Positions 49,559-62,856 of a DNA stretch of 64,000 nucleotides are shown here, one piece after another. Origin of the DNA: Gemmatimonadota bacterium (GTDB lineage: Bacteria; Gemmatimonadota; Gemmatimonadetes; Longimicrobiales; Gaopeijiaceae). The notes under the pieces are model-generated. The model was given only the letters and a program-made list of their open reading frames with translations, had not been told where the DNA came from and made no database searches. Every line of letters starts with the position of its first letter. Position 1 is the stretch's first letter. The DNA is taken from assembly GCA_034521595.1 (NCBI GenBank), contig JAXHMG010000003.1, forward strand, positions 2,432,001 through 2,496,000, written 5' to 3'. The translations under genes and the position numbers were made by a program.

Positions 49559-50944
49559 TCAGCAGGTACCGAGAATAAAGCAGTTCGAAACCCGCTCACC
49601 CTGACCGATCACGAACACCTGACCGGGATTGGTGACGGCATCGGACGTGCTGCTCCAGCGCGGGGCGGTCACACCGAAGCGGTACATGTCCCACAACCGA
49701 CGCGTGACCATGTTGTACAGGTTCACGCGCCGCTCGTGCTGGAGAACCTCCAACGGCTCGGGATGGAGGGGGTTGTCGACATCATACTCGTCATGCGGAT
49801 GATCCGGATTCTTCATGGCCCGCACGTGGTTCAGATGCGTCTCGGCGATATCGTCCTCACCGTCGGCGATGGCCGCCTCGGCCAGGATCAGGTGGAGCTC
49901 CCTGGCCGTGACGACGTCGACTTCGGGGTAGAGGAACGCATCCACGAACTCCGTGATGCGCGCCTGGAGCGCCTGGTCCGGCATGTCGTCGATCGGGTCG
50001 AGCAGCGAGATCGCCGCTTCATCCGTATCGCCGTCGCCGTCGGCATCGTCCTCATCCTGCGCAACCGACTTTCCGCTCCCACTGATCACGACGTACTCGT
50101 CGGCCGGCACGAACTCCTGCCGGGAGTTCACCCAGGACCCCTGGGGGCTTTCGCTCGTCGACGATTGGAAGCGGAATCGGTATGCCCAATCCTCGTCCAC
50201 TCCGATCGCGTCGATCACGTCCTGAGCGTAACCATTGGCGGTCGCGTCGTTCACCAGCGGATCCGCCGTCGGGTCACCCTGCATCTTGGGCCACATGGCC
50301 CGCCCCCAGTGCGCGCGAGCCAACAGCGCGCGGATGGTGGTCGCGTCGCTGCCGCTCGCGAGCGCGAGCGCCGACTCGAGCCGGTCGATCGCGGTATCGT
50401 AGACCGACTGCATGTTGTCTTCGCCGACCGGCGGCCCCACCTCGATGCGGTCGGAGAACGCGAAGTCCTCCATGTTGTCCGCGATCGTCATGTGCATGAT
50501 GCCGGAGTACATGTTGGCGCGCATGACTTGCTCATCGTCCGCGCCGAACTCCACCGCGAGGCGCAGCGCCTCTTCGGCCGTCCAGGTCGCTTCCGCGAAT
50601 ACGTCGGTGAGAGCGTCACTTCGCCCGGACGGCGTCGTGATGATTCCCCGGTCGAGCTCGGCCGCCCAGTTCTGGGAGCCGGTATGCGTGAGCTCGTCGC
50701 TCAGGGCCGTCGTCGAGACGGCCGCGTCTCCGACCGCCTCCGAGGTGAGCTGCAACGCCCCGTTGACCAGGGCCGAAACCGCCTCCGCGTTCTCGAGGTC
50801 CGACTGAACCACGTTGTTGGGGTTTTCTACGTCTAGCAAGCTGTCACAGCCGGTCGCGCCCACGGCGAATGCCGCAGTCAGAAGCCCCGCGCTCAGGCGG
50901 TTCAGCTTCCGCCGGCTTTTGTAGCCAGTTTGTACGGATTGCAT
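49559..50944 (-). CDS. RagB/SusD-like nutrient-binding lipoprotein
   Basis: ATGC lipobox, LLDVENPN, LLARAH, ELHLILAEA, HERR..RRLWDMYR. Confidence 0.85.
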   Translation of the reverse strand: MQSVQTGYKSRRKLNRLSAGLLTAAFAVGATGCDSLLDVENPNNVVQSDLENAEAVSALVNGALQLTSEAVGDAAVSTTALSDELTHTGSQNWAAELDRGIITTPSGRSDALTDVFAEATWTAEEALRLAVEFGADDEQVMRANMYSGIMHMTIADNMEDFAFSDRIEVGPPVGEDNMQSVYDTAIDRLESALALASGSDATTIRALLARAHWGRAMWPKMQGDPTADPLVNDATANGYAQDVIDAIGVDEDWAYRFRFQSSTSESPQGSWVNSRQEFVPADEYVVISGSGKSVAQDEDDADGDGDTDEAAISLLDPIDDMPDQALQARITEFVDAFLYPEVDVVTARELHLILAEAAIADGEDDIAETHLNHVRAMKNPDHPHDEYDVDNPLHPEPLEVLQHERRVNLYNMVTRRLWDMYRFGVTAPRWSSTSDAVTNPGQVFVIGQGERVSNCFILGTC

Positions 50945-50961
50945 ATGAGATTCTCCGTTGA

Positions 50962-53900
50962 TCAGAAGCCGATACGAACGCTGAACGTGTAGCGCGTGGG
51001 CACACCCGGACGCCAACCGTCGATGCCGTACACGAAGTTGCTCGTGTCACCACTCGGGCTCGTGACGACGTTGCTCTCCGGATCGATGCCGGAATACTTC
51101 GTCCACAGCTTCAGGTTACGGCTCGCAGCCGTGACGGTCATGCGGTCGATGCCGAGGCCTTCGATGGCCGAACCCGGGACCTGATAGGTCAGGCCGAGCT
51201 CACGCCACCGGATGTAATCGGCCTCCTCGATCTTGTTCGTTCCGTCCCAAGGAGACAGCCCCGCGTGCTCTCGCCACTCGTTCGCGGCCGCCACCTTTTC
51301 GTCCGGTGACGCGTCCGGATTCGTGAGCGTGGACTCGATCTCCGCCGTCTCCCGGGTGTTCCGCCCCAACAGCCAGTGGGAGGCGCGGAACTCGCCGCTC
51401 AGGTTCTGGCGATGGAAGTTGCCGAACGCGTAGTCGAATTGAGTGGTCAGGCGGAAGCTTCCCAGAAAGGAGAGCGTCCCTCCGAAGGAGCCCGACCAAT
51501 CCGGCATGGGCTTTCCTCGGAAGAACTCACCGTCCGGCCCTTGACCACCCGTCGCCGGGAGAAACGCGAGATCGTCGGGGCTCACCGAGGGATTGTCCAC
51601 GAAGAACTGCCGCAGCTCGTCCTCGGAGTCCGGTTGGCCGTCATTGTCGTTGTCGTAGGCAGTCTCACCGGCCTGCGGCTCATAGATCTTGCGGCTGAAG
51701 AACGAGCCCGGTGCGTGCCCCTCCACGATCCACGTCCGGTACCGATAATACCCGACCTTGATCGCGGGGGCCTCGCCCATGTCCGTGACCTCTTCCTCGG
51801 TGTACGCAGCGTTCACGAACATGTCGAAGCCGGCGTTCGACGTGTTGAACAGCGTGCCGTTCATCCCGAGCTCGAATCCGGTCGCCTTCATCTCACCCAG
51901 GTTGAAGAGCTGGGTCGACGTGAAGCCACCCGACGGCGGGAACTGCCGCGGGACCAGCACGTCGCTGACCGTTCTGTCCCAGTACGTCGCGTCGAGCGAG
52001 AAACGGTCGTCCAGAATACCGAAGTCGCCACCGACCTCCCACTCGGTCGAAACCTCCGGCCTCAGGTCTTCATTACCGAGGTTGTCCGGCCCCACGCCGG
52101 GGCCTTCCACCGAGGGAACCGGTTGGAACGTGGTGAACTGGTCGAAAGCGCCGGGCTGCAATCCGGACCGTCCGACCGCTGCACGGAACCGGACCGAGCT
52201 GAACGGCCCGATACCGTCCATGCCGGCCATATCGGTCGGCACGACCGACACACTGACCTTCGGGTACAGCTCTCCGCCCGCGGTCTCACCGAACGCGCTA
52301 TGCTTGTCGTACCGCGCGCCGAGCGTGGTGAAGATGAAGTTGTTGAAGCCCAGCTGTTCCTGGACGTAGACTCCGGCGTTCACCTCCTGGTTGACCGTCT
52401 CGCCCGCGCTCGGCTCGGAAGCCGCCCCCGTGACCTCGAGGCCCGGTGCAGGAAATGCGAACCCGCTGCTGAAGTTCTCGTGGTACTCGTTTTGGAGGAG
52501 CTGCGCGCCCAGGATGAACGACGACGTGATATTTTCGGTCAACTCGTTGTCGTACACCGCCTTCGCGTCGAATGTGATGTTCCGCCGGTTGTGCGTGCTG
52601 AAGTCGCGCTCGCCCTCGGGGGCGGTGTTGGCGAAGTCATCGACGTTCCAACCGAAGCGCTGAAAGTCGATCTCCTCCGACGACACGATGTCCACGCCGA
52701 TGGTCGCATCCAGCGTCAGTCCCTCGAGCGGATTGTACTGCGTGTTGACGCTTCCGGCGAACCGCTTGGTCTCTTCGAACTGCTCGATGTTGAACATCTC
52801 GCGGATCGTCGCGAAGGTCCCCGTTCCCGTCGGGTTGTTCTCCCGAGCGAGCTCCGGCTTCGCCATGATCGACATGGAGAAGGTTCCGGTCGTGTTGTTC
52901 CCGTTGGTCGGGACTTCGTGGTAGCGCTCGGTATACATCGAGTTGAAGCGCAACCGGAGATCTTCGGTCGGGAAGAAGGTCAGATTGGCGGTCGCCTGCT
53001 TCTGCTCGTCGACATCCTGAGCCGGACCCCACTGCTCACCGCCGAAGGCGCCGTCCTCGTAGGCGTACCGGCCGGAGACGTAGTAGTTGATGGATTCGGT
53101 ACCGCCACGCACCGACAGGCTGTAGGCCTGGTTGAATCCGGTTTCGAAGAGCCCGTCGAGCAGCGGCGTGTCGAAGACCTCGTACCGACCGAGGGAACCG
53201 AGCCCCCAGTGGTCCGCAACGGCGTCCGCGTGCTCCTGACTGCATCCATCGCCCGGCCACAGAGCCGAGCCGGCCTGGCTGCAAACGAAGCCGGAGTGCT
53301 GCGCGTACCGCTCCATCGGCATCTGAGAGAAGCCGCCCTCGGCGGTCATCTCCCACTGCGGGTCCCCTGCCTGGCCCCGCTTGGTGAAGATCTGGATGAC
53401 CCCGTTGGACGCTTCGGTCCCGTACAGGGTGGCGGCCGCCGCACCCTTCAGGATCTCCACCCGCTCGATCGACTCGGGGTTGATGTCATCGAGGCGGGAC
53501 GCCGCGCCCGCGTCTCCGTCGTCCACGGCGTTAGAGACCCTGATGCCGTCGACGTAGACGATCGGGTTGTTGCTCTGGGTGAGCGACGAGGTGCCACGGA
53601 TACGGATCTCGGAACCTTCACCGGCCATGCCGCCGCTCTGTGCGACCGACACCCCGGCGGTGCGCCCCTGCAACTGCTCGGAGAAGTTCGCCGTGGGCGC
53701 GTCCTGGAGCTGCTCCATGTCAACCGCCGAAACGGTGTTGCCGAGACGGCGACGCTCGGTGGCCTGCCCGGCCCCGGTAATGACGAGCTCGTCGAGCTGA
53801 ACCGCGCTCGTGGAGAGCTCGAAGTCGAGCTGGGCGGTCTCACCGTCCGCGACCGTCACGGTCTGCTCGGCCGAGCCGTAACCCACGCGGTCCACCGAGA

Positions 53901-54150
53901 CGGTGACCTCGCCGGCCGGCACCTCGAGAAGAAGGTAACGCCCGGACGAGTTGGTGAGCGTCCCGAGGCTCGTGCCTTCGACGAAAACCTGCACGGCATC
54001 GAGCGGGCGCATGCTACTGCCGTCGACCACGGTACCCGTGATCGACCCTTGCTGCGCGGCCACGGCGCCCGGCAAGAACGCCAGGACGGCGGCCGTCAGC
54101 AACGCCCGTGATTGCCCTCGTGCTGCTTGGACAAACGCGTCATGAAACAT
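50962..54150 (-). CDS. SusC/RagA family TonB-dependent outer membrane transporter
   Basis: Carboxypeptidase-like N-domain, LDELVITG, IRIRG, IERVEILKGAAAATLYG..NGVIQI, terminal Phe. Confidence 0.93.
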   Translation of the reverse strand: MFHDAFVQAARGQSRALLTAAVLAFLPGAVAAQQGSITGTVVDGSSMRPLDAVQVFVEGTSLGTLTNSSGRYLLLEVPAGEVTVSVDRVGYGSAEQTVTVADGETAQLDFELSTSAVQLDELVITGAGQATERRRLGNTVSAVDMEQLQDAPTANFSEQLQGRTAGVSVAQSGGMAGEGSEIRIRGTSSLTQSNNPIVYVDGIRVSNAVDDGDAGAASRLDDINPESIERVEILKGAAAATLYGTEASNGVIQIFTKRGQAGDPQWEMTAEGGFSQMPMERYAQHSGFVCSQAGSALWPGDGCSQEHADAVADHWGLGSLGRYEVFDTPLLDGLFETGFNQAYSLSVRGGTESINYYVSGRYAYEDGAFGGEQWGPAQDVDEQKQATANLTFFPTEDLRLRFNSMYTERYHEVPTNGNNTTGTFSMSIMAKPELARENNPTGTGTFATIREMFNIEQFEETKRFAGSVNTQYNPLEGLTLDATIGVDIVSSEEIDFQRFGWNVDDFANTAPEGERDFSTHNRRNITFDAKAVYDNELTENITSSFILGAQLLQNEYHENFSSGFAFPAPGLEVTGAASEPSAGETVNQEVNAGVYVQEQLGFNNFIFTTLGARYDKHSAFGETAGGELYPKVSVSVVPTDMAGMDGIGPFSSVRFRAAVGRSGLQPGAFDQFTTFQPVPSVEGPGVGPDNLGNEDLRPEVSTEWEVGGDFGILDDRFSLDATYWDRTVSDVLVPRQFPPSGGFTSTQLFNLGEMKATGFELGMNGTLFNTSNAGFDMFVNAAYTEEEVTDMGEAPAIKVGYYRYRTWIVEGHAPGSFFSRKIYEPQAGETAYDNDNDGQPDSEDELRQFFVDNPSVSPDDLAFLPATGGQGPDGEFFRGKPMPDWSGSFGGTLSFLGSFRLTTQFDYAFGNFHRQNLSGEFRASHWLLGRNTRETAEIESTLTNPDASPDEKVAAANEWREHAGLSPWDGTNKIEEADYIRWRELGLTYQVPGSAIEGLGIDRMTVTAASRNLKLWTKYSGIDPESNVVTSPSGDTSNFVYGIDGWRPGVPTRYTFSVRIGF

Positions 54151-54320
54151 AGGGCCTCCCCTATCAAGGAGTGGTTGGGCCATGCTCGGCCCTTCGGTTA
54201 CAGGCGGTCGCTCACCGCCCGAGCTGTGTACCTCGAGTACCTGCACGTGGGCACGCGACCCGCACCCAGCTCTGGGAGCCTCGAGTGTCGAGTGCGCGCA
54301 GCGCGGATCACCCGGTGCGC

Positions 54321-54349
54321 AGCTTTGGCTCTGGAAGCGGCTGTGTCAA
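54321..54349 (-). promoter_or_regulatory. Candidate sigma-70 promoter of the susC-like gene
   Basis: TTGACA-N17-AAAGCT on the minus strand, about 170 nt upstream of the ATG. Confidence 0.45.
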
Positions 54350-54420
54350 GGAATCGTGCAGAGCAACGCACGGGGACCGGAGCTATCGATCGGACGCATG
54401 CCCGTCGACCCTCCGTGCCA

Positions 54421-54660
54421 TCAGCCTCCGAGAGCCCGGTCGATCATGCGCTGGATGAGCTCCGGCCTCAGCGCCCGCGGATCGGTATAGGTGGGCCAGG
54501 GGGCCCGGAAGGTGACCGCCTCGCACGTGAACTCGAATCCGGCCGGAACGTCGCCCTGGTCGGGTTGGTCACACCCGACCACACGGGCGTCCCGGCCGGC
54601 GGATCGCCACACGATCCGCCACGTGACACCGTCTCGGTCACGAAACTCGAAGTCCGTCAC
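54421..54660 (-). CDS. Small hypothetical protein
   Basis: GGGGGA RBS, GTG start; FEFRDRDGVTWRIVW..GFEFTC..LIQRMIDRA. Confidence 0.55.
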   Translation of the reverse strand: MTDFEFRDRDGVTWRIVWRSAGRDARVVGCDQPDQGDVPAGFEFTCEAVTFRAPWPTYTDPRALRPELIQRMIDRALGG

Positions 54661-54760
54661 AATCCCCCCAGAGTGAAGCGTCGCCCGTTTCACTAAAGTG
54701 AATCGACGACGCCTGTTTGTCACGAGTCTCGTTGCAGCACGGGCGCGGACGACCCCTCTG

Positions 54761-54795
54761 AAAAAGGCCCGGGAGCCGCTGTGCGGCCCCCGGGC
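54761..54795 (-). terminator. tRNA-Lys terminator
   Basis: GCCCGGG..CCCGGGC stem followed by TTTTT on the minus strand. Confidence 0.7.
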
Positions 54796-54799
54796 GCAG

Positions 54800-54872
<73 letters not shown>

Positions 54873-54931
54873 ATCGGGAGCCCTTTAAGGTACGTTCGGG
54901 GAACACCCGGTCAAGCTTTCGCGCCCACCGG

Positions 54932-55324
54932 TCACGGTGAGGGGCCGTCACCGGCATCGTCCCGAAGCAAGGAGGCTCCCGGCTGGAGCGCTCGCGCCCG
55001 GTCGAGTGCCTCCGCGGCGGCGCTGTCGTTGCCGAGTGCCCCTTCCGCCATGTACACGCCGAACCAAGCCGCGGCGACCGCGTCGTCGATCTCGACGGCA
55101 CGCCGGTAATGCTCCACGGCCGCCTCGGGCGCTCCGGACCGCATCGCGACGTTCCCGCTGTCGAGTTGGGAGACCAGGGCCTGTGGCAAGGCGTCTCTCG
55201 CCTCCCGCACGGCGTCCGGCGTAACCGAATCCGTGCGCTGATCATCCTCGCGACATCCCCCGAAGACCACGATGACCGCGACGATCGCCATGACGCTACG
55301 GAGCGCACGAACCTGCTCGAGCAT
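54932..55324 (-). CDS. TPR-repeat lipoprotein
   Basis: FGGC lipobox; AVEHYRRAVEIDD..AAWFG..ALDRARALQP. Confidence 0.8.
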   Translation of the reverse strand: MLEQVRALRSVMAIVAVIVVFGGCREDDQRTDSVTPDAVREARDALPQALVSQLDSGNVAMRSGAPEAAVEHYRRAVEIDDAVAAAWFGVYMAEGALGNDSAAAEALDRARALQPGASLLRDDAGDGPSP

Positions 55325-55327
55325 TAG

Positions 55328-56776
55328 TCAGGATCCTCCCACCGGGTTACCCACGTGACACGCGAGACATGTTCGCGGCGAAGTCGCCCACGCACGCTCC
55401 GCGTCGAACGACGGACCATGCGGGCTGACCCTGAACGAGCCCAGAACCCCGTGACACTGCACGCAGTCGCGTTGTTGGTGGCACGAAGCGCAGCTCTCCA
55501 GGTTCTGCCGGGCCGCCTGTCCGTGGCGAAGGAGCCAGACGGGCTCGGCGTCGTGGTACCCGGATCCGAGTCGGCCGGAGCTCTCGAATCCGCTTTCCAG
55601 ATGGCAGGCGCGACAGAATGCGGCCGTTTCGTGGCAGGTAGCGCACTCGTCCGCGCGACCGAACGCAGCGGCCGCGTGCGTCCCCACGAAATCCGCGGGG
55701 TGATAGCTGTCCCCGGCGGGAGCGTCGTGACAGTCCGTGCAGTACCCGTCGGTGTGGCAAGTGCCGCACGTCGATTCGTCGGCCGCCGCCAGAGTCGAAT
55801 GAGCCTCCATGAAGAACGGCGACTCGTGGGTCCCCGGAGCCGACGCGGTGAGCCCCACGCCTGGAGCGTGCACGTCGGCACGCCTCGGCAGGGCGTCGAC
55901 CACGGCCGGCGCCGCGCTCACGTGACACGCCCGACAGTCCTCGGTCGTGTGGCAGGTGTTGCAGGATCCGGCATCGGACACGGGAGCGTGTCGTTCGCTC
56001 CATCGCGCTCGAGAATGTGACTCGGGAACCGGATAGGCCGCGGTCACCGGTGGGAGCTCGAGGTCGGGGGGGGCGGAGGGCATGGCCGCCACTGCGGGTT
56101 GGCCCGCATCCACGTGACAGGAGACGCACCGCTCTTCGGTATGGCACGTCGCACACCGGGCTGTGCCCTCCGAGGCGGAGGCGCCGTGGTCGCTCGCGAC
56201 GAATCCCCCGGTCAGGTGATCCCTCGGAACCGGAAGGCCGGTGATGCGCTCTACGGAGAAGCGACTGTCCGACAGTGGGACGTGACACATGGCACATTCA
56301 GCCGTGCCTTCGGGGACGGACTCGAAGTGACCGTCCGGCTCGCCGGCATGGCATGCGAAGCATGCGCTTTCGACCACCCGAGCCTCGACGTCCATGCGCG
56401 CGGCATCCGGCTCCGCGTGACAGCTCTCGCAGCTTCGGGGCGGCTCCCCCGCCGTCTCGAGATCCGCCGCGTGCGTGGCATGGTCGAATAGGACGTTGCT
56501 CGAGGTGTCGCTCGGCCCGGACCAGGATACCGCCGGGAGATCCACGTCGTCGTGACAACGGGCGCAGAGCTCCGCCTCCGGGTAGCCGGGAGCATCCCCG
56601 GCAGCGGGGGTGGTGTGGCATCCGGTGCAGACCGGGAAGAGTCCCGCGTGTTCCTCGTGGGGGAAGGGCTCCTCCTGGACGCTGCCGACCCCGGCCGATA
56701 CGACGCCCGTCAGAGCCACCGCGCCCACCACACCGACGCCGAGCGCGCCCAGCCGCAAGCTTCGAATCACGCTCAT
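55328..56776 (-). CDS. Exported multiheme cytochrome c (16 CxxCH)
   Basis: Signal/TM N-terminus; 16 CxxCH motifs counted; FPHEEH and FDHATH distal-His motifs. Confidence 0.92.
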   Translation of the reverse strand: MSVIRSLRLGALGVGVVGAVALTGVVSAGVGSVQEEPFPHEEHAGLFPVCTGCHTTPAAGDAPGYPEAELCARCHDDVDLPAVSWSGPSDTSSNVLFDHATHAADLETAGEPPRSCESCHAEPDAARMDVEARVVESACFACHAGEPDGHFESVPEGTAECAMCHVPLSDSRFSVERITGLPVPRDHLTGGFVASDHGASASEGTARCATCHTEERCVSCHVDAGQPAVAAMPSAPPDLELPPVTAAYPVPESHSRARWSERHAPVSDAGSCNTCHTTEDCRACHVSAAPAVVDALPRRADVHAPGVGLTASAPGTHESPFFMEAHSTLAAADESTCGTCHTDGYCTDCHDAPAGDSYHPADFVGTHAAAAFGRADECATCHETAAFCRACHLESGFESSGRLGSGYHDAEPVWLLRHGQAARQNLESCASCHQQRDCVQCHGVLGSFRVSPHGPSFDAERAWATSPRTCLACHVGNPVGGS

Positions 56777-58215
56777 CGCTGACCACCGCGTCGTCCGGAC
56801 AGACCCGGGTCTTCGCCCAACGTGACACGCAGCGACGACCACCCACGGTTCTGACTCCATGGCCGGTCGCCGCCATCGTCCGCATATCGATGCCGAAGCA
56901 CCGAGTAACCGCCCCGGAAGGAGAGGCGGTCCGTCAGTTGGGTGCCCGCCGACACACCGCCTCCCCATGCGCGCCCGTCACCGAGCCGGTACTGCTCGAT
57001 TTGCTGGAGCGTACGGGCGGAAATCGTGACGAACGTGTCGTCGGACGGCGTCCACGCCAGCCGGGTCTCGCCCGACGACAGGTAGCCGCCGGGGCCCCAT
57101 TCGAGCTCGTATGACACACCCGCGGACCAGGCGTCGCCCGGCGTCCACGTCGCTTCCAGGCCTGCGCGGCGTCCGCTGTCCTCGAGCGGTCTCAGAACGA
57201 CCGTCGTGCCCGCGGCTCCGTATCGTCGGACTCCGACGGATCCCTCGACCCGCCACGCATCCCGCGGAGCCCAGCCGACGCGGACCGTGCCTTCGGTATA
57301 GGCGACCGGCTCGAACAGGCCCCAGATGGTGGAAAGAGAGAAATACGGAACGTACCGGGCCGCCGATGCCTCGATCATGCCGCGAGCTCCGTCGAACGGA
57401 CGGGACAGGGTGAGGTGCCCCTTGCCGACCTCCCGCCGGGCGACATCGTAGTCCAACGAGCCCCGGAGCGTCCCGACGGACGAGCTCCAGCTCATATCCA
57501 GCGACGCGCGTTCCGAAGCGAGCCCGGAACGGTCGGCGAGGATCTCGCGGTGGTAGCGGGCCGTCATCGACAGGGCCGAGATGCGTCCGCGGGCGGATGC
57601 ACCAACGAGGTACACACTCTGGTCCGGCAGGAAATCCTCCAGGCCTCGCAACGCCTCATGGGCGGGATCGCGCAATCCCCTGGCGAGACTCCGTCCGCCG
57701 TATGCTTCAACCCGGATCCGGGGTCGGCTCCAGCGCACCATGCCACCGTCGAAGGACGGGAAGCCGAGTCCCGAACGCACTTCCTGACGCCCCACGCGCA
57801 CGGTGAGCTCTCCCCGCGCCAACGCCGCGTAAGCGAGCATGGCGTCGAAGGGATCGTCGGCCCGCGGCCATTCGAAGGCTCCTGCGACACGCTGTCGGGC
57901 ACGGAGCTGAACGGTCGCGCTCAGCCCCTGGACGCCCAGCCCCCAGGCGGTGAAAAAGAGGTCCTGGTTCGCGACGACCGCCAGCTCTTGATCCGCGCTC
58001 GTGTAGCACGGAGCGTCCGACGGACACGTGGCGGCGACCCGCTGGACCGGCCGCATGTCGACGAGCTGAGCCGAAGACCCGACCCACCCTCGGCCCTTCT
58101 GAGCCTCCGCTTCACCAGCAGCCCCCCCGGCGAGGGCCGCAACCGCAGCGATGCACCCGACCCACCGCCACGATGCGCCGACGCGGGGGCGCACGACCGC
58201 ATCCTTCCTGCTCAA
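56773..58215 (-). CDS. Putative outer-membrane beta-barrel (porin)
   Basis: Signal AEA-Q; amphipathic strands rich in Y/W/G/R; no CxxCH; overlaps cytochrome genes on both sides. Confidence 0.7.
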   Translation of the reverse strand: MSRKDAVVRPRVGASWRWVGCIAAVAALAGGAAGEAEAQKGRGWVGSSAQLVDMRPVQRVAATCPSDAPCYTSADQELAVVANQDLFFTAWGLGVQGLSATVQLRARQRVAGAFEWPRADDPFDAMLAYAALARGELTVRVGRQEVRSGLGFPSFDGGMVRWSRPRIRVEAYGGRSLARGLRDPAHEALRGLEDFLPDQSVYLVGASARGRISALSMTARYHREILADRSGLASERASLDMSWSSSVGTLRGSLDYDVARREVGKGHLTLSRPFDGARGMIEASAARYVPYFSLSTIWGLFEPVAYTEGTVRVGWAPRDAWRVEGSVGVRRYGAAGTTVVLRPLEDSGRRAGLEATWTPGDAWSAGVSYELEWGPGGYLSSGETRLAWTPSDDTFVTISARTLQQIEQYRLGDGRAWGGGVSAGTQLTDRLSFRGGYSVLRHRYADDGGDRPWSQNRGWSSLRVTLGEDPGLSGRRGGQR

Positions 58216-59936
58216 GGGGCCCCCACCCGGAACCCCGGACCGGTCATTGCGTGGCATTCCGCGCAATCGCCTTCGGGGCGGTGGTCGCGCTGATCCTGAT
58301 GGCAGACCAGACAGACGGAACGGGTCCGCTCGACGCTCTCGAACGGCGCATCCTGGTGGCAGCCGCTCCCGCCACACCCCACGTGCGCCGTTTCCACGCT
58401 ATGTGCATCCGGCGCGGCGGGCTCGTGGCACGACGCACAGTCGTTACCCGGATCATGGTGCGCCTCGTGACACGACGCGCAGTCCGCGCCGCTCGCGGAG
58501 CGGGTTGGATCATCCGTGTGGCAGGTCGCGCAGCGCTCGCCGGCATGGACGGCATGATCGAACGGGAGGCCGCGTCCGGGGCGCTCTCCGACGGACAACA
58601 CGAGCGTTCGCGTCACCTCCAGGGTCTCGGAGGTGCCGCCCGTCTCGGCATGGCACGTGGCGCAGTCTCCGGCCTCCGGCTCGGTATGATGACAGCTTCG
58701 GCAGTCCGTCACGGTCGTGACCGTGAGCGACCCGTGCTCGGGCTCACTCGCATGGCACGCGGCGCACTCGACGTCCCGGTGCTCGGTATGCTCGAACGGG
58801 GGCTCTTCCTGGCGGGCAGCGCTCGGGCTCCGGGAAGGCGAGACGGTCGTGGGGGACGAGCCGAGCGCCGCATGCGCGGCAAGGAGAACCGCGTCGCTCC
58901 GGGTGGATCCGGCGGCACTCCCCACGGTTCCGGGGTGGGGGCGCGTGCCGGATGGATTCCCGGCCCCGGCCGACGTTTCCGTGTCATCGAAAATGTCCGT
59001 GTGGCACGCGAGGCAGTTGTCGCCGTCCACGTGAAAATCGTGGGCCTGGTGACAATACATGCAATCCGAGGCCACCCCTTCGTCCAGACCCCGGTGAAAG
59101 GGTGTGAGCGCTTCAGCGTCCGTGTGACACCCGGCGGACGCACAGCTCTCGGCAGCCTCTTCGGGCGTCGCCTGCTCGTGGGGATTGTGACACGATGCGC
59201 AGGTGCCCTCGTGCGGATCGTCGTCCGGCATCGTCGCCATCGCCTGCATGGCGTGGCAGGAAAGGCACGTATCCTCGTTCGGGGCGAGCGCGGCCAACGC
59301 CGCTTCCGAACCCTCGGCGTCCACGGTCGTGTTGAAGCCGTGACAGGCCGCGCAGTGGATCGTCAGGTCACTCATTCCCCCGAGCTCGATCCCGGTGTCC
59401 TCGTGACATCCGGCTTGCGCGCACGTCCGGTCGCTCGCCGCGAACTCGTGCAGCGAGCTCGAATGGCACTCCACGCACTGCAACCCTTGAAGCGCGGGGT
59501 CGTCGGATTCGAGGTGCGCCCGGTGGCCCGCTGTCGCCGCCACGACCTCCCATCGCTCGGGGTCGCCCTCGATGTGGCAGTCGGCGCACAACCCGTTCGG
59601 CACTTCGGCGTGCACTGAAATCTCGTCGGGATTCTCGACGAACTGGGTGAGCCCCATGCGGCTCCGCTCGATCAGGTTCGGCTGATGGCAGTCCTTACAG
59701 CTGAGATCCTGGTGGGCGCTCCGGGCGAACCGTTCGTACGGTTCCGCCATGAGATGGCACGACAGACAGAAATCGTTGTCGTGCTCGACGAAGTCGTAGG
59801 TCTGGTAGGCGTAGTAACTCCCGGTCCCGGCCAGCGCCACCACGAGCACGCCCACGCCCGCGAGCGTAGGCAGCGACAACGTGGCGAGCCACCGGGCAAT
59901 ACGGCCCCGAGCCGGAGGAGGAGGGTCCGGAGGCAT
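58212..59936 (-). CDS. Membrane-anchored NapC/NirT-like multiheme cytochrome c (17 CxxCH + 3 CX4CH)
   Basis: N-terminal TM then YDFVEHDNDFCLSCHLM..YERFARSAH..CKDCH, the NapC/NrfH-type start. Confidence 0.9.
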   Translation of the reverse strand: MPPDPPPPARGRIARWLATLSLPTLAGVGVLVVALAGTGSYYAYQTYDFVEHDNDFCLSCHLMAEPYERFARSAHQDLSCKDCHQPNLIERSRMGLTQFVENPDEISVHAEVPNGLCADCHIEGDPERWEVVAATAGHRAHLESDDPALQGLQCVECHSSSLHEFAASDRTCAQAGCHEDTGIELGGMSDLTIHCAACHGFNTTVDAEGSEAALAALAPNEDTCLSCHAMQAMATMPDDDPHEGTCASCHNPHEQATPEEAAESCASAGCHTDAEALTPFHRGLDEGVASDCMYCHQAHDFHVDGDNCLACHTDIFDDTETSAGAGNPSGTRPHPGTVGSAAGSTRSDAVLLAAHAALGSSPTTVSPSRSPSAARQEEPPFEHTEHRDVECAACHASEPEHGSLTVTTVTDCRSCHHTEPEAGDCATCHAETGGTSETLEVTRTLVLSVGERPGRGLPFDHAVHAGERCATCHTDDPTRSASGADCASCHEAHHDPGNDCASCHEPAAPDAHSVETAHVGCGGSGCHQDAPFESVERTRSVCLVCHQDQRDHRPEGDCAECHAMTGPGFRVGAP

Positions 59937-59959
59937 GCGGCGTCACCCGGAAAACGCGG

Positions 59960-61390
59960 TCACCGACTCCCTCGGACCTCGCTCGAGCGTGCCGGAGCAC
60001 CGAGGCCGTACCTAGACTCCACCTCGTCGATCGTGGCTTGGAGCAATGCCTCGATGAGGAACGGGTTGTGCACCGCCGCCCCAGGCGAGCGCGCGAGCTC
60101 GAGGTTGAACTGCGCCCCTTCACCCACCGTGTACCGGTCGTCCGTCTCGTCGAACTCGCTTTCGGGGATCTGAGCGATGAGGGATTCGAGATCGTCGGCG
60201 TCGCCGGCGATCCGGTTCTCTGCATTGATTTGCAGGTTACGGGCAACGTCCGCGGACCCGTGGCAACCCGAAGCCGTGCACCCCTGGTAGGAGCGTTCCT
60301 CCGGCTGACATCCGTCCGCGCCGGTGGGGATGCCGTCCGCGTCCACGCATGGCGTCGCCTCGAACGAGTGCCCCGTCGACTGGAAGACGAGCTCCTCCGT
60401 GTCCTGGTCGACGATCTCGAACGACTGCACGTGACACGACGCGCAGAGGCCCGGGTTCGCTTCCGGAGTCCCGTGCGTGCCGACGAGGCGCCCGCCCGGG
60501 AAGCTCATATCGGACGGCCACCATCCGGCCACGCCGAGCAGCGTGGGGCCCTCCGGAGCATGCGGGCCCCGGAACGTGGTGGGATCGGGGGTCCCGCGCT
60601 TGTTGTGGCACATCATGCAAAGGTTCTGATCTTCGTTCGGCACGTTCGTGGCGAACCTGAGCTGCGCCGGGTTGTCCGAGCCGTGAGGATCGTGACAGAC
60701 CGCGCAGGTGATCGAAAGGTGCTCACCGTCTTCTGCGACGTCGTCCTGTTCGAGGTACGTGGTGTTCACCCCGAACATCTCGAGGGCACCCTCGCCCGTG
60801 TGGCAACTGGAACAATCCGCTCTACCGGCCGGATAGGAGTTGAACTGTCCGTGGCCGGATTCCGACCATTCGTCGGCGAACGGATGGTGCGCGCCCTGAT
60901 GGCACTCGGCGCAGCCACTGGTGAGATCCAATCCCACGTCCATGGGAGCGGAGGGGACCGTGGCATCGTTCGGGTCCTCGACGTGAGCGAGCCCTGGGCC
61001 GTGACACGCCTCACACTGAACGTCCTCGTAGCGCGCTTCACCGGTCGCTGCGTGTCCCATCGTGCCCGTGGTCACGTTCCCCAGCTCGCCCACCGTGTGG
61101 CAGCCTTCGCAAAAGCCCTGGGCGTGCCCGCTGTCCTGCAGGCCATCCCAGGCCGACGCGTGGGCGGTTTCGACCCAGTCCTGCTGCGTGCCGATGTGGC
61201 AGTTGCCGCAGACCGTGAGCTTGTCATCGCTGTCGCTGTAGCCGAGAAAGGACCCGGCGGCGTCGAGCGGATCTTCGAACAGCTCACGGTCCCGGAAGAC
61301 CACTTGCTCGTCGACGCAAGCGGCGGTCGCGACGAGGGAGCCGGCAACGATGCTCAACAAGGCCACGCGCATGATTCGAGTCGGCATCAT
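59960..61390 (-). CDS. Multiheme cytochrome c lipoprotein (8 CxxCH + 1 CX4CH)
   Basis: TAAC lipobox; WVETAH, VQCEACHGPG, ITCAVCHDPH; helical C-terminus AVHNPFLIEALL. Confidence 0.9.
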   Translation of the reverse strand: MMPTRIMRVALLSIVAGSLVATAACVDEQVVFRDRELFEDPLDAAGSFLGYSDSDDKLTVCGNCHIGTQQDWVETAHASAWDGLQDSGHAQGFCEGCHTVGELGNVTTGTMGHAATGEARYEDVQCEACHGPGLAHVEDPNDATVPSAPMDVGLDLTSGCAECHQGAHHPFADEWSESGHGQFNSYPAGRADCSSCHTGEGALEMFGVNTTYLEQDDVAEDGEHLSITCAVCHDPHGSDNPAQLRFATNVPNEDQNLCMMCHNKRGTPDPTTFRGPHAPEGPTLLGVAGWWPSDMSFPGGRLVGTHGTPEANPGLCASCHVQSFEIVDQDTEELVFQSTGHSFEATPCVDADGIPTGADGCQPEERSYQGCTASGCHGSADVARNLQINAENRIAGDADDLESLIAQIPESEFDETDDRYTVGEGAQFNLELARSPGAAVHNPFLIEALLQATIDEVESRYGLGAPARSSEVRGSR

Positions 61391-61671
61391 CCGGCTCCAC
61401 TCCTTCGGCTGCGGTCAGGTGGCGGTTGGCACGGGTTCCCGTGCCACGACGTGGCGTCGGCAGCCCGGCGGCGTCCGAAGCCTCCGGGATTTCCCTGATT
61501 CGACCGGGGGGAGGGTGTCCGTGATCTTACGGACCCGGCACACACTATGTTGGCACGGCGGGAGGCACGGCCGCAAGGGCCACGCCCGTTCGCATGGAGC
61601 ACGGCCCGAGCCGGGCGGCGCGATTTACCAGCTAAACCGCGCCGTCCCTGCTCGAACGGAGCGTCGGCCGC

Positions 61672-62856
61672 CTAAAAGGCGCTTAGGCCCGTGACGGCCT
61701 GACCGAGGATCAGCGAGTGGATGTCGTGCGTCCCTTCATACGTGTAGACGGACTCGAGGTTGGCCATGTGCCGCATCGAATGGTACTCGACGAGGATGCC
61801 GTTCCCTCCGAGCAGTCGTCGTGCCTCGCGCGCCACATCCGTGGCCATGTCGCAGTTCGCCCGTTTCGCCAGGGACACCTGCTGAGGCGTCATCGTGCCG
61901 TCGTCCTTCATCCGGCCGAGGCGGTAAGACAGGAGCTGACCTTGCGTGATGCTCGTGAGCATGTCGGCCAGGCGAACCTGCTGGATCTGCTTTCCGCCGA
62001 TGGGCGTGTCGAACATGACCCGCTCCTTCGCGTAGGACCGGGCCTCGTCGAAGCAGGCCATGGCCGCGCCGACGACCCCCCAGGCGATCCCGTAACGCGC
62101 CTGTGTCAGACACATCAGTGGGTGCTTGAGTCCTCGCGTGCTTTCGGGCATGAGAGCGTCGTCCGGCACCTCCACGTCCTCGAGCACGAGCTCGCTCGTG
62201 TCGGAGGCCAGAAGGGACAGCTTTCCCTTCTGGTCGCGTGCGCTGAATCCCGGGGTGTCGGTGGGCACCACGAAGCCCCGGATACCTTTCGGATCCCCGA
62301 GCTCACCGGTCTGCGCCCAGACCACGGCCACGTCCGCCATGGACCCGTTCGTGATCCACATCTTGGCCCCGTTGAGCACCCACCCGTCCGACGTCTTCTT
62401 GGCCGTCGTGACCATCCCCGACGGGTTGGAGCCGTAGTCGGGCTCCGTGAGCCCGAAGCACCCTACGGCCTCACCGGTGGCGAGCTTCGGCAACCAGGTG
62501 GTGCGATGCTCCTCGCTTCCGAACGCGAAGATCGGGTACATGACCAGCGCGCCCTGAACCGAAACGAACGAACGGATCCCCGAGTCGCCCCGCTCGAGCT
62601 CCTGCATGATGAGCCCGTAGGCCACGTTGTTCAGCCCCGCGCATCCATACTTCTCGGGCAGGTTCGCCCCGAGGACGCCCAGCTCCCCGAGCTCGGGAAT
62701 CAGCTCCTTCGGAAAACGCCGTTCCGTGTATGCCTCTCCGATGATCGGCATGAGCCGGTCGTCGACCCAGGAGCGGACGGTATCCCGCACCATGCGCTCT
62801 TCGTCGGAGAGCAGGGAGTCGATGTCGTAAAAGTCGATACCTTCGAAGCGCGCCAT
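61672..62856 (-). CDS. Acyl-CoA dehydrogenase (glutaryl-CoA dehydrogenase-like)
   Basis: ELERGDSGIRS, GCFGLTEPDYGSNP, KMWITNG, VYTYEGTHDIH. Confidence 0.92.
   Translation of the reverse strand: MARFEGIDFYDIDSLLSDEERMVRDTVRSWVDDRLMPIIGEAYTERRFPKELIPELGELGVLGANLPEKYGCAGLNNVAYGLIMQELERGDSGIRSFVSVQGALVMYPIFAFGSEEHRTTWLPKLATGEAVGCFGLTEPDYGSNPSGMVTTAKKTSDGWVLNGAKMWITNGSMADVAVVWAQTGELGDPKGIRGFVVPTDTPGFSARDQKGKLSLLASDTSELVLEDVEVPDDALMPESTRGLKHPLMCLTQARYGIAWGVVGAAMACFDEARSYAKERVMFDTPIGGKQIQQVRLADMLTSITQGQLLSYRLGRMKDDGTMTPQQVSLAKRANCDMATDVAREARRLLGGNGILVEYHSMRHMANLESVYTYEGTHDIHSLILGQAVTGLSAF

Follow-up and report, generated by a model that had tools for sequence, protein, structure and literature searches.

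The DNA analyzed here, referred to as the window, is a stretch of 64,000 nt from a Gemmatimonadota bacterium (assembly GCA_034521595.1, contig JAXHMG010000003.1, positions 2,432,001 to 2,496,000 of the forward strand). Between positions 54932 and 61390 it carries a cassette of five open reading frames (ORFs), here called g1 to g5, which are arranged head-to-tail and all lie on the minus strand. Three of them encode multihaem cytochromes with 9 (g1), 20 (g2) and 16 (g4) haem motifs, 45 in total, while the other two, an outer-membrane β-barrel (g3) and a small tetratricopeptide repeat (TPR) lipoprotein (g5), have none. Both the five genes and the sum of about 45 haems had been read from the letters in an initial annotation of the window; they agree with the ORFs and with our counts of CXXCH and CX4CH motifs, which are conserved in orthologues. 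We consider it probable that the operon encodes a porin-cytochrome conduit by which the quinol pool of the inner membrane is connected with the cell exterior. The four roles of such a conduit (quinol-linked inner-membrane cytochrome, periplasmic cytochrome, porin and surface lipoprotein cytochrome) can be assigned to the genes in the way set out in the initial annotation, and synteny of the set extends over the phylum.

The barrel gene g3 is located at 56773..58194 on the minus strand. Two start codons come into question, a TTG at 58215 giving 480 amino acids and a GTG at 58194 giving 473. A strong Shine-Dalgarno site (AGGAAGGA) lies 7 nt ahead of the GTG, and the 473-residue form is the one stored in the protein database and in the ESM Atlas. 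Judged from the sequence, the GTG is the likelier start. The initial annotation had described two overlapping junctions in the cassette. The TTGA overlap between g2 and g3 is doubtful, as it requires the TTG start, and a start at the GTG replaces it with a gap of 17 nt. The ATGA overlap between g3 and g4 stands, and the remaining gaps are 23 nt (g1/g2) and 3 nt (g4/g5), as had been given.

The family of g3 is unnamed. There is no match to g3 at E <= 0.1 in Pfam or NCBIfam, and a profile of 40 barrels of the family found nothing among the PDB sequences at E <= 1, MtrB included. The MtrB_PioB model (PF11854) matches neither g3 nor, at E <= 0.01, anything else in the genome. As the barrel has no Pfam or NCBIfam model, it may be missed by tools that rely on named families. 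The AlphaFold2 model built from the family alignment (pLDDT, the predicted local distance difference test, 82.9; predicted template modelling score 0.75) is nevertheless the β-barrel that had been predicted: DSSP assigns 22 long strands after a signal peptide that ends in AEA, with Q as the first mature residue. A structural search against representative structures placed TonB-receptor barrels first (FyuA with Z 20.8, root-mean-square deviation 4.4 and 380 aligned residues; BtuB with Z 20.6) and MtrB at rank 11 (Z 18.2, deviation 4.7, 369 aligned). These matches to TonB receptors take in the barrel part only, for example residues 137–651 of FyuA. The g3 barrel has no plug, and unlike TonB-dependent receptors it matches neither the plug model PF07715 nor the TonB_dep_Rec model PF00593. 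With Foldseek, OccK/OprD-type porins and AlgE came out on top and MtrB was at rank 39.

On one side of the barrel the strands are connected by 22, 10, 7, 23, 5, 4, 17, 14, 2, 6 and 8 residues, on the opposite side by 2–6. Such a contrast between a side with long loops and a side with short turns is usual for barrels of the outer membrane. The order of conservation is unusual, with a mean identity of 0.62 in the long-side loops, 0.555 in the strands and 0.365 in the short turns; loops 147–153, 178–200 and 289–305 are nearly invariant. The barrel is basic (isoelectric point 9.5) and the cytochromes are acidic (4.3–5.05). The first long loop also contains two invariant cysteines, C64 and C70 (around 58005–58026 of the window), which may form a disulfide.

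The gene g4 (55328..56776, minus strand) encodes a 16-haem cytochrome of 482 amino acids. By inspection, we take its N-terminus, which is hydrophobic and in the orthologues shows A-x-A-like sites, for the cleavable signal peptide of an exported protein. All 42 orthologues have 16 CXXCH motifs, and in an alignment of 43 sequences the 16 motifs and 15 further histidines are invariant, as expected of the bis-His haems of a wire. With 28 residues per haem in g4, and 26 in g2, both proteins appear wire-like. Compared with the PDB by profile, g4 is similar in part to the 16-haem cytochrome HmcA (1.2e-11) and in part to OmcA (1.6e-7).

As g3 and g4 form the most constant part of the cassette, this pair was picked for complex prediction, using g3 residues 37–480 and g4 residues 31–482 with a separate alignment for each. 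Three runs gave scores of 0.76, 0.73 and 0.37 (median 0.73), and the best of three controls scored 0.00. In these runs the pLDDT of the partners was at least 71 and the share of common contacts at least 14%. Of 80 solved complexes 58 attain the mark for this score, and of 110 mismatched pairs 2 do so; this calibration is rough, since our own alignments were used. Modelling the barrel together with the cytochromes had been suggested in the initial annotation, and for g4 the result is in agreement with an association. The contacts in g3 involve 21 of the 22 strands at every second residue, which predicts that g4 lies in the lumen, and in addition the whole conserved loop 290–304 and loop 335–346. 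The interface residues of g4 lie between 258 and 473, and 97 of the 101 are at position 316 or beyond, in a stretch with seven of the 16 haem motifs; nine motifs precede it. In the barrel, the interface is better conserved than the rest (0.689 vs. 0.492), a difference reached by none of 5000 permutations. The conservation of the g4 interface reflects that of the whole C-terminal third (0.657 for interface and remainder alike within residues 316–482). In TonB-dependent receptors, a plug of about 150 residues fills a barrel of 22 strands. Since this plug, with a similar cross-section, fits such a barrel, a slim haem wire within g3 is geometrically plausible. The model thus supports the C-terminal seven-haem third of g4 being situated inside the g3 barrel.

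In order to assess the conservation of the barrel, candidates were scored in 90% clusters, which gave 363 relatives at E <= 0.001. At 50% identity there are 255 representatives, 183 of them at E <= 1e-10. The organism names on the homologues are all Gemmatimonadota or Longimicrobiales, which supports the Gemmatimonadota origin that the initial annotation had taken as probable. The nearest Atlas clusters of both g3 and g4 belong to Gemmatimonadota as well. In an even sample of the phylum, the barrel is found at E <= 1e-10 in 181 of 401 genomes, the genome of the window included, and in 80 of 147 genera. Families differ in this respect: the barrel is present in 117 of 166 genomes of one family, but in no more than 11 of 69 of the family to which the window belongs.

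The synteny survey called for in the initial annotation was carried out on a collection of species-representative genomes, in which two strict peptide patterns found 52 loci, all in metagenome-assembled genomes (MAGs) of the Gemmatimonadota lineage. The gene order is kept over these loci. Counting only loci whose contig leaves room, g4 follows directly after the barrel in 50 of 51 (the sole miss, L082, has split g4 matches) and g1 lies upstream of the barrel in 44 of 44. Between g1 and the barrel, g2 is present in 42 of 46 loci and of full length in 39, and g5 comes after g4 in 35 of 40. Eighteen stretches taken from relatives agree with this, and among them are variants in which g2 is short or missing. 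We also labelled a tree of 61 barrels by full, short or absent g2. The variants were scattered over the tree, and we make no evolutionary claim from it because several of the “short” labels are contig truncations.

This conservation also bears on whether the five proteins work together at all. They could be neighbors by descent, with g3 a general porin and the cytochromes serving for periplasmic electron storage or detoxification, and a high complex score is by itself no proof against this. Still, we find such an explanation very improbable, given that gene order and haem counts are conserved over the 52 loci, that the barrel recurs in the 181 genomes, and that the predicted interface residues are conserved. 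The genes are moreover tightly spaced, with one overlapping pair, and a strong hairpin lies past the last of them.

At the inner membrane, g2 (58212..59936, minus strand) encodes a cytochrome of 574 amino acids. It has 17 CXXCH and three CX4CH motifs, and all 20, in this combination, are invariant in 35 of 35 orthologues. A single hydrophobic helix at residues 16–40, predicted to anchor the protein in the membrane, is followed by a conserved GGYYAY, and the protein has no other hydrophobic segment. The g2 profile matches NrfH (2j7a_C) at 5.3e-7, with a best stretch of only 35 residues. The remainder resembles c3, c7/PpcA and ActA modules of the PDB, and a weak match to MtrA is also seen (6.2e-4). 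None of the curated quinol-dehydrogenase models reaches its cut-off (PF03264, 18.1 vs. 24.1; TIGR03153, 32.8 vs. 134.2; TIGR02161, 17.5 vs. 310.6). Of the NapC/NirT-like character assigned in the initial annotation, the membrane helix, the first haem motifs and the short NrfH match are thus seen, and the family assignment is a tentative one. Since the putative quinol-dehydrogenase head is fused to 16 more haems, a soluble periplasmic shuttle seems unneeded.

Genes resembling g2 also occur elsewhere around the cassette in relatives. In 11 of the 52 loci (L042, L049, L050, L053, L054, L058, L062, L067, L076, L081 and L082) an extra gene similar to the C-terminal third of g2 (query residues ~315–573) is found after g4, at a distance of 0.1–3 kb from g4 or g5 on the downstream side; no such gene is present in the window. 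Elsewhere (L051, L067, L068, L019, L026 and L029) a short g2-like gene stands in place of the full-length g2.

The proposed outer cytochrome g1 (59960..61390, minus strand, 476 amino acids) is a nonahaem lipoprotein whose ATG is preceded by AGGAG at 9 nt. It has eight CXXCH motifs and one CX4CH motif, with 50 residues per haem. The same combination is seen in 36 of 42 orthologues, nine CXXCH and no CX4CH in five, and seven plus one in the last. Within the lipobox region, Cys25 and Asp27 are invariant among 43 sequences and Val26 and Glu28 are conserved in at least 90% of them. Searched against the PDB, the family profile of g1 matches the 11-haem S-layer cytochrome of Carboxydothermus ferrireducens (6qvm; 1.8e-16 over ~365 positions) and OcwA of Thermincola potens (6i5b; 4e-11). 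Weaker matches are MtrA (1.9e-5) and cytochrome c554 (1.7e-3). The Pfam model Cytochrome_C554 (PF13435) is reached, with 21.3 for a cut-off of 20.8. OcwA has been described as a nine-haem terminal reductase of the cell surface, in which the haem core is c554-like plus NrfA-like, two of the haems are open and the C-terminus forms a helical bundle (PMC6703420). The corresponding features that we looked for are all found in g1: besides the homology to OcwA and the number of nine haems, it has an N-terminal module of the c554 type, and a helical bundle at its C-terminus is seen in the model as long helices at 380–405, 422–433 and 443–461 (pLDDT 85–96). A Foldseek search with the g1 model gave nothing at E <= 0.001; its top matches are again 6QVM and 6I5B, both weak (E 1.5e-3 and 1e-2), with 18–19% identity in the structural alignment. 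The MtrC model TIGR03507 gives 13.6 bits for a cut-off of 209.3. On these sequence comparisons g1 is of the OcwA/NrfA type, homologous to OcwA and not to MtrC. The initial annotation had expected a surface lipoprotein cytochrome; the lipoprotein is there, of the OcwA/NrfA type and not MtrC-like. Tandem second copies of g1 were observed upstream of the cassette in two loci (L036 and L063) and partial copies in two more (L051 and L057).

The relationship of g1 to enzymes of the NrfA/c554/MccA/OcwA superfamily suggests another use for the operon, as an enzyme module of the periplasm. Here g1 would face the periplasm, where an open haem would reduce or oxidize a soluble compound of nitrogen or sulfur, and g2 would feed g1 in the manner of NrfH and NrfA, with the barrel as substrate channel only and g4 as electron store or adaptor. 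The NrfH-like head of g2 would suit this arrangement, and OcwA is reported to turn over nitrite and hydroxylamine (PMC6703420). In addition, g1 has eight conserved non-motif histidines (seven invariant, one at least 90% conserved) for its nine haems, leaving one haem without a conserved distal histidine. However, none of the five proteins contains a CXXCK motif, so that g1 lacks the mark of an NrfA-type active-site haem, and a soluble substrate needs neither 36 extra haems nor a dedicated 22-strand barrel. The prediction of g4 within this barrel, with all controls at 0.00, likewise argues against the module, as do the barrel-g4 pair being the most constant part of the cassette and the conserved surfaces of the barrel being its lumen and its long loops. 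A match to a characterized periplasmic terminal reductase, which the initial annotation had advised to look for, was obtained for no family at its curated cut-off. We therefore regard the periplasmic module as improbable and the conduit as the better explanation.

The last gene, g5 (54932..55324, minus strand), encodes a lipoprotein of 130 amino acids with a lipobox that is conserved in the orthologues. Its TPR matches lie barely under the curated cut-offs (TPR_2, 26.5 vs. 27), and it shows a weak likeness to TPR proteins of the PilW, LapB and SycD types. The lipoprotein part of the description as a TPR lipoprotein is thereby confirmed, and the TPR part falls just short.

If the operon encodes a conduit, electrons would take the following path. 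Held in the inner membrane by its single helix, g2 would exchange electrons with quinol via the NrfH-like tetrahaem head and pass them across the periplasm along its 16 further haems. The N-terminal nine haems of g4 would take them over in the periplasm, and the C-terminal seven, threaded through the lumen of the 22-strand barrel, would bring them to the outer face. There g1 would receive them. Its acceptors would be large or insoluble, for instance humics or the oxides of Fe(III) or Mn(IV), and an open haem might serve small substrates as well. The lipoprotein g5 may aid the assembly or docking of the complex. The parts of this path outside the g3-g4 insertion, i.e., the coupling to quinol, the contacts of g2 with g4 and of g4 with g1, the outward direction and the substrates, are what we infer from the types of protein involved.

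Several observations weigh against a conduit of this kind. The assignment of g2 to NrfH/NapC stays under the curated cut-offs, and the whole g1 model is poor (pLDDT 67.6). With eight conserved histidines for nine haems, an open catalytic haem and hence an enzyme with a soluble substrate also fits g1. Its exposure at the cell surface is likewise inferred. The residues C-V-D-E that begin with the lipid-modified cysteine of g1 resemble the acidic lipoprotein export signals of Bacteroidota (PMC5080379), and in this genome all six SusD-like lipoproteins with a recognizable lipobox have Asp at +2. Acidic residues are common at these positions, however, with 16 of 61 roughly predicted lipoproteins having two or more at +2 to +5, and we discarded the motif as too weak an argument for surface exposure. 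The model of g3 with g4 contains no haem, one of its three runs scored just 0.37 and the agreement of contacts goes down to 14%. As a solved porin-cytochrome complex exists (6R2Q), part of the score may be learned likeness, a concern countered by the absence of sequence similarity between g3 and MtrB. Among the RNA runs listed, none matches the locus. The only good matches among DNA runs are salt-pan metagenomes from one study, which may be the source sample.

The genome adds a further reservation. It measures 3.49 Mb, is 93% complete and has six ORFs with at least three CXXCH motifs, of which three are in the cassette and the others have 5, 3 and 5 motifs. Thus, g1, g2 and g4 are its only cytochromes with more than five. 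One of the other multihaem ORFs is the pentahaem subunit of an alternative complex III (ACIII) and adjoins the molybdopterin subunit of that complex. Two haem-copper oxidases and nine SusD_RagB matches were also found. Judged by its gene content, the bacterium would be a heterotroph, either aerobic or facultative, that has a single dedicated conduit and is not a cytochrome-rich specialist. This aerobic-heterotroph look (two haem-copper oxidases, ACIII, SusC/D pairs) makes the physiological need for a conduit unclear. The best molybdopterin-oxidoreductase match of the genome lies outside the window (contig C3, 1829545–1830813); it has one in-frame TGA and may be a selenocysteine enzyme of the formate-dehydrogenase type.

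The same oxidases and ACIII would make oxygen available as an electron sink, and the flow could then be inward. Donors outside the cell or at its outer surface (a cathode, a partner cell, reduced humics, Fe(II) or Mn(II)) would deliver electrons through g4 and g2 to the quinone pool or onward to the oxidases, as proposed for MtoAB, PioAB and PCC3. In principle, electrons can run either way through NapC/NrfH-type proteins and haem wires. Porin-cytochrome clusters of similar appearance have been described in oxidizers (PMC5566968), and a Gemmatimonas MAG has been described with an “mto-like” system (PMC6137239). On the other hand, g1 is most closely related to terminal reductases of metal reducers, and MtoAB- and PioAB-like oxidizer systems usually come without an outer lipoprotein cytochrome (PMC5566968). 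The 93%-complete genome yielded no RuBisCO large subunit, and iron lithoautotrophy is therefore not supported; mixotrophy would remain compatible with inward flow. We hold this direction to be unlikely and prefer an outward flow through the conduit.

Looking at the phylum, we tentatively suggest, as an idea that may well prove too broad, that about half of Gemmatimonadota possess a lineage-specific, hard-wired path of 45 haems from quinol to the cell surface, composed of a g2 that would work without a shuttle, g4 within a new kind of barrel and, at the surface, a catalytic nonahaem g1 of the OcwA type otherwise used by Gram-positive metal reducers. Gemmatimonadota are widespread in soils and sediments, and we know of no member that has been tested for extracellular electron transfer. 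If the suggestion holds, an abundant and largely aerobic phylum of soils, sediments and salt pans would be an unrecognized player in the redox chemistry of minerals, humics or electrodes. A single conserved cassette is also a target of a size suitable for a knock-out, by which one could ask whether the phylum respires or oxidizes minerals and humics. As a compact porin-cytochrome design made from non-Mtr families, it would further be useful for comparing the evolution of conduits and for bioelectrochemical engineering.

The borders of the operon were also inspected. The hairpin past the last gene (54767..54795, minus strand) is terminator-like and sits 137 nt past the g5 stop; it has 13 pairs, 12 of them G-C, and is followed by CTTTTT. 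The region contains two terminator-like sites, for a mean of 2.3 in shuffled sequences. As this number is not elevated, the argument for the hairpin is one of position and stem strength only. Beyond it lie an ORF of 100 amino acids without a Pfam family (54421–54723, minus strand) and then, at 49559–54246 and just downstream of the operon, genes for a SusD-like lipoprotein and for a TonB-dependent receptor that is SusC-like and contains a carboxypeptidase-regulatory domain. On the other side, the gene upstream of g1 encodes an acyl-CoA dehydrogenase and is followed by a 15-nt inverted repeat.

A candidate operator was found at 61519..61532 (minus strand), 129–142 nt upstream of the g1 start. 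It reads CCGTA-N4-CACGG and is an imperfect version of the palindrome TCCGTA-N4-TACGGA, sites of this type being present about 104–142 nt upstream of g1 in many of the orthologous loci (L031–L081). Searched in a relaxed form, the pattern gives a hit in the 300 nt ahead of g1 in 19 of 44 loci, the window included, for a background of 0.014 per 300 nt in the same loci. In an alignment of 16 sequences TCCGT and ACGG are invariant, and the copy in the window has one half-site altered (CACGG). The geometry of the palindrome, 5-N4-5, is that of Crp/Fnr-type boxes. Genome-wide, the perfect CCGTA-N4-TACGG was found four times for 3.6 expected, giving no sign of a larger regulon.

Two other candidates for control of the operon were rejected. 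A perfect 9+9 palindrome, TGGCACGGG-AA-CCCGTGCCA, is located at 61427–61446, 37–56 nt ahead of the g1 start. It is not conserved, with TGGCAC upstream of g1 in one of 43 loci. Its first half looks like the -24 element of a sigma-54 promoter and no -12 element follows; the -24/-12 consensus, searched with two patterns in the 300 nt upstream of g1, was found in none of 44 loci. A scan of 54200–62000 for sigma-70-type promoters gave no site, and the organism may use another promoter type.

We found no published description of the cassette, the barrel family or the components in the full-text literature, a coverage that leaves out most subscription journals. The initial annotation had taken the lineage as one not known as a model for extracellular electron transfer. 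Passing mentions of clusters of this kind are in print. Gemmatimonadetes or Gemmatimonadota appear among the holders of multihaem or iron-cycling genes (PMC9769843, PMC8478452), and one survey counts, in a table, one CbcL-type and two ImcH-type homologues and no CymA for Gemmatimonadetes (PMC6295460). Another reports porin-cytochrome complexes in 36 MAGs, 23 of them in Gammaproteobacteria, Acidobacteriota and Planctomycetota; its figure 6 or supplementary table 2 may list Gemmatimonadota (PMC13264449).

Of the known systems, MtrCAB with CymA of Shewanella (6R2Q) follows the logic proposed for the cassette, in which a quinol dehydrogenase of the NapC/NrfH type is joined by a haem wire that runs in a barrel and by a lipoprotein cytochrome at the surface. 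In structure, g3 is close to MtrB, and MtrA is matched weakly by the g1 and g2 profiles. As in MtrCAB, MtoAB and PioAB, a cytochrome is predicted to pass through the lumen of a barrel (score 0.73), a likeness of mechanism and not of ancestry. Unlike MtrB, which has 26 strands, g3 has 22, and the family model shared by MtrB and PioB does not match it. There are no decahaem proteins in the cassette: as the initial annotation had pointed out, counts of 9, 20 and 16 are unlike those of MtrA and MtrC. The DmsE/MtrA-type model TIGR03508 gives 48.6 bits for g1 and 28 for g2 with a cut-off of 192.2, which together with the results for the MtrC and MtrB_PioB models places the cassette outside the Mtr families to which a comparison had been recommended. 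The quinol dehydrogenase would also differ from CymA in its 16 additional haems.

PCC3 and PCC4 of iron oxidizers likewise combine a porin with haem-rich cytochromes of a low residue-per-haem ratio and are proposed to span the envelope. Part of their definition is a conserved inner-membrane protein that has five helices and two HX13H motifs (He et al., 2017, PMC5566968). No such protein is encoded in the operon, where each product has at most one N-terminal hydrophobic segment, nor by the flanking genes, which are the acyl-CoA dehydrogenase and the SusC-like receptor. The haem numbers differ as well, the medians being 34 and 21 for PCC3 and 4, 5 and 10 for PCC4.

The architecture is nearer to Pcc of Geobacter (OmbB-OmaB-OmcB) than to Mtr. 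This likeness is one of description and gene layout. Pcc has been described as having a porin-like protein of 18–22 predicted strands and a periplasmic cytochrome of 5–14 haems, with homology defined by BLAST at E < 0.01 (Shi et al., 2014, PMC4245776). The 22 strands of g3 are within that range. As in Pcc, the porin gene is directly followed by that of the putative periplasmic multihaem cytochrome, and the putative outer lipoprotein cytochrome has an atypical haem motif, CX4CH in g1. The cassette departs from Pcc in the 16 haems of g4, which exceed the range given, and in g1, which is of the OcwA/NrfA type and reaches 32 bits with the GSU2203 family model (NF041028) for a cut-off of 325. The operon also adds the 20-haem inner-membrane cytochrome and the TPR lipoprotein.

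The homologues of g1, OcwA and the 11-haem S-layer cytochrome, are found on Gram-positive cell walls, whereas g1 is a lipoprotein of a diderm that is encoded near a barrel, and its identity to them is low. Taken together, we conclude that the cassette is most likely a porin-cytochrome conduit of a new make. Going by the sequences, it would differ from the known conduits in the family of its barrel, in the use of an OcwA-type outer cytochrome in a diderm, in a quinol-dehydrogenase head fused to 16 haems and in the constant presence of a TPR lipoprotein.

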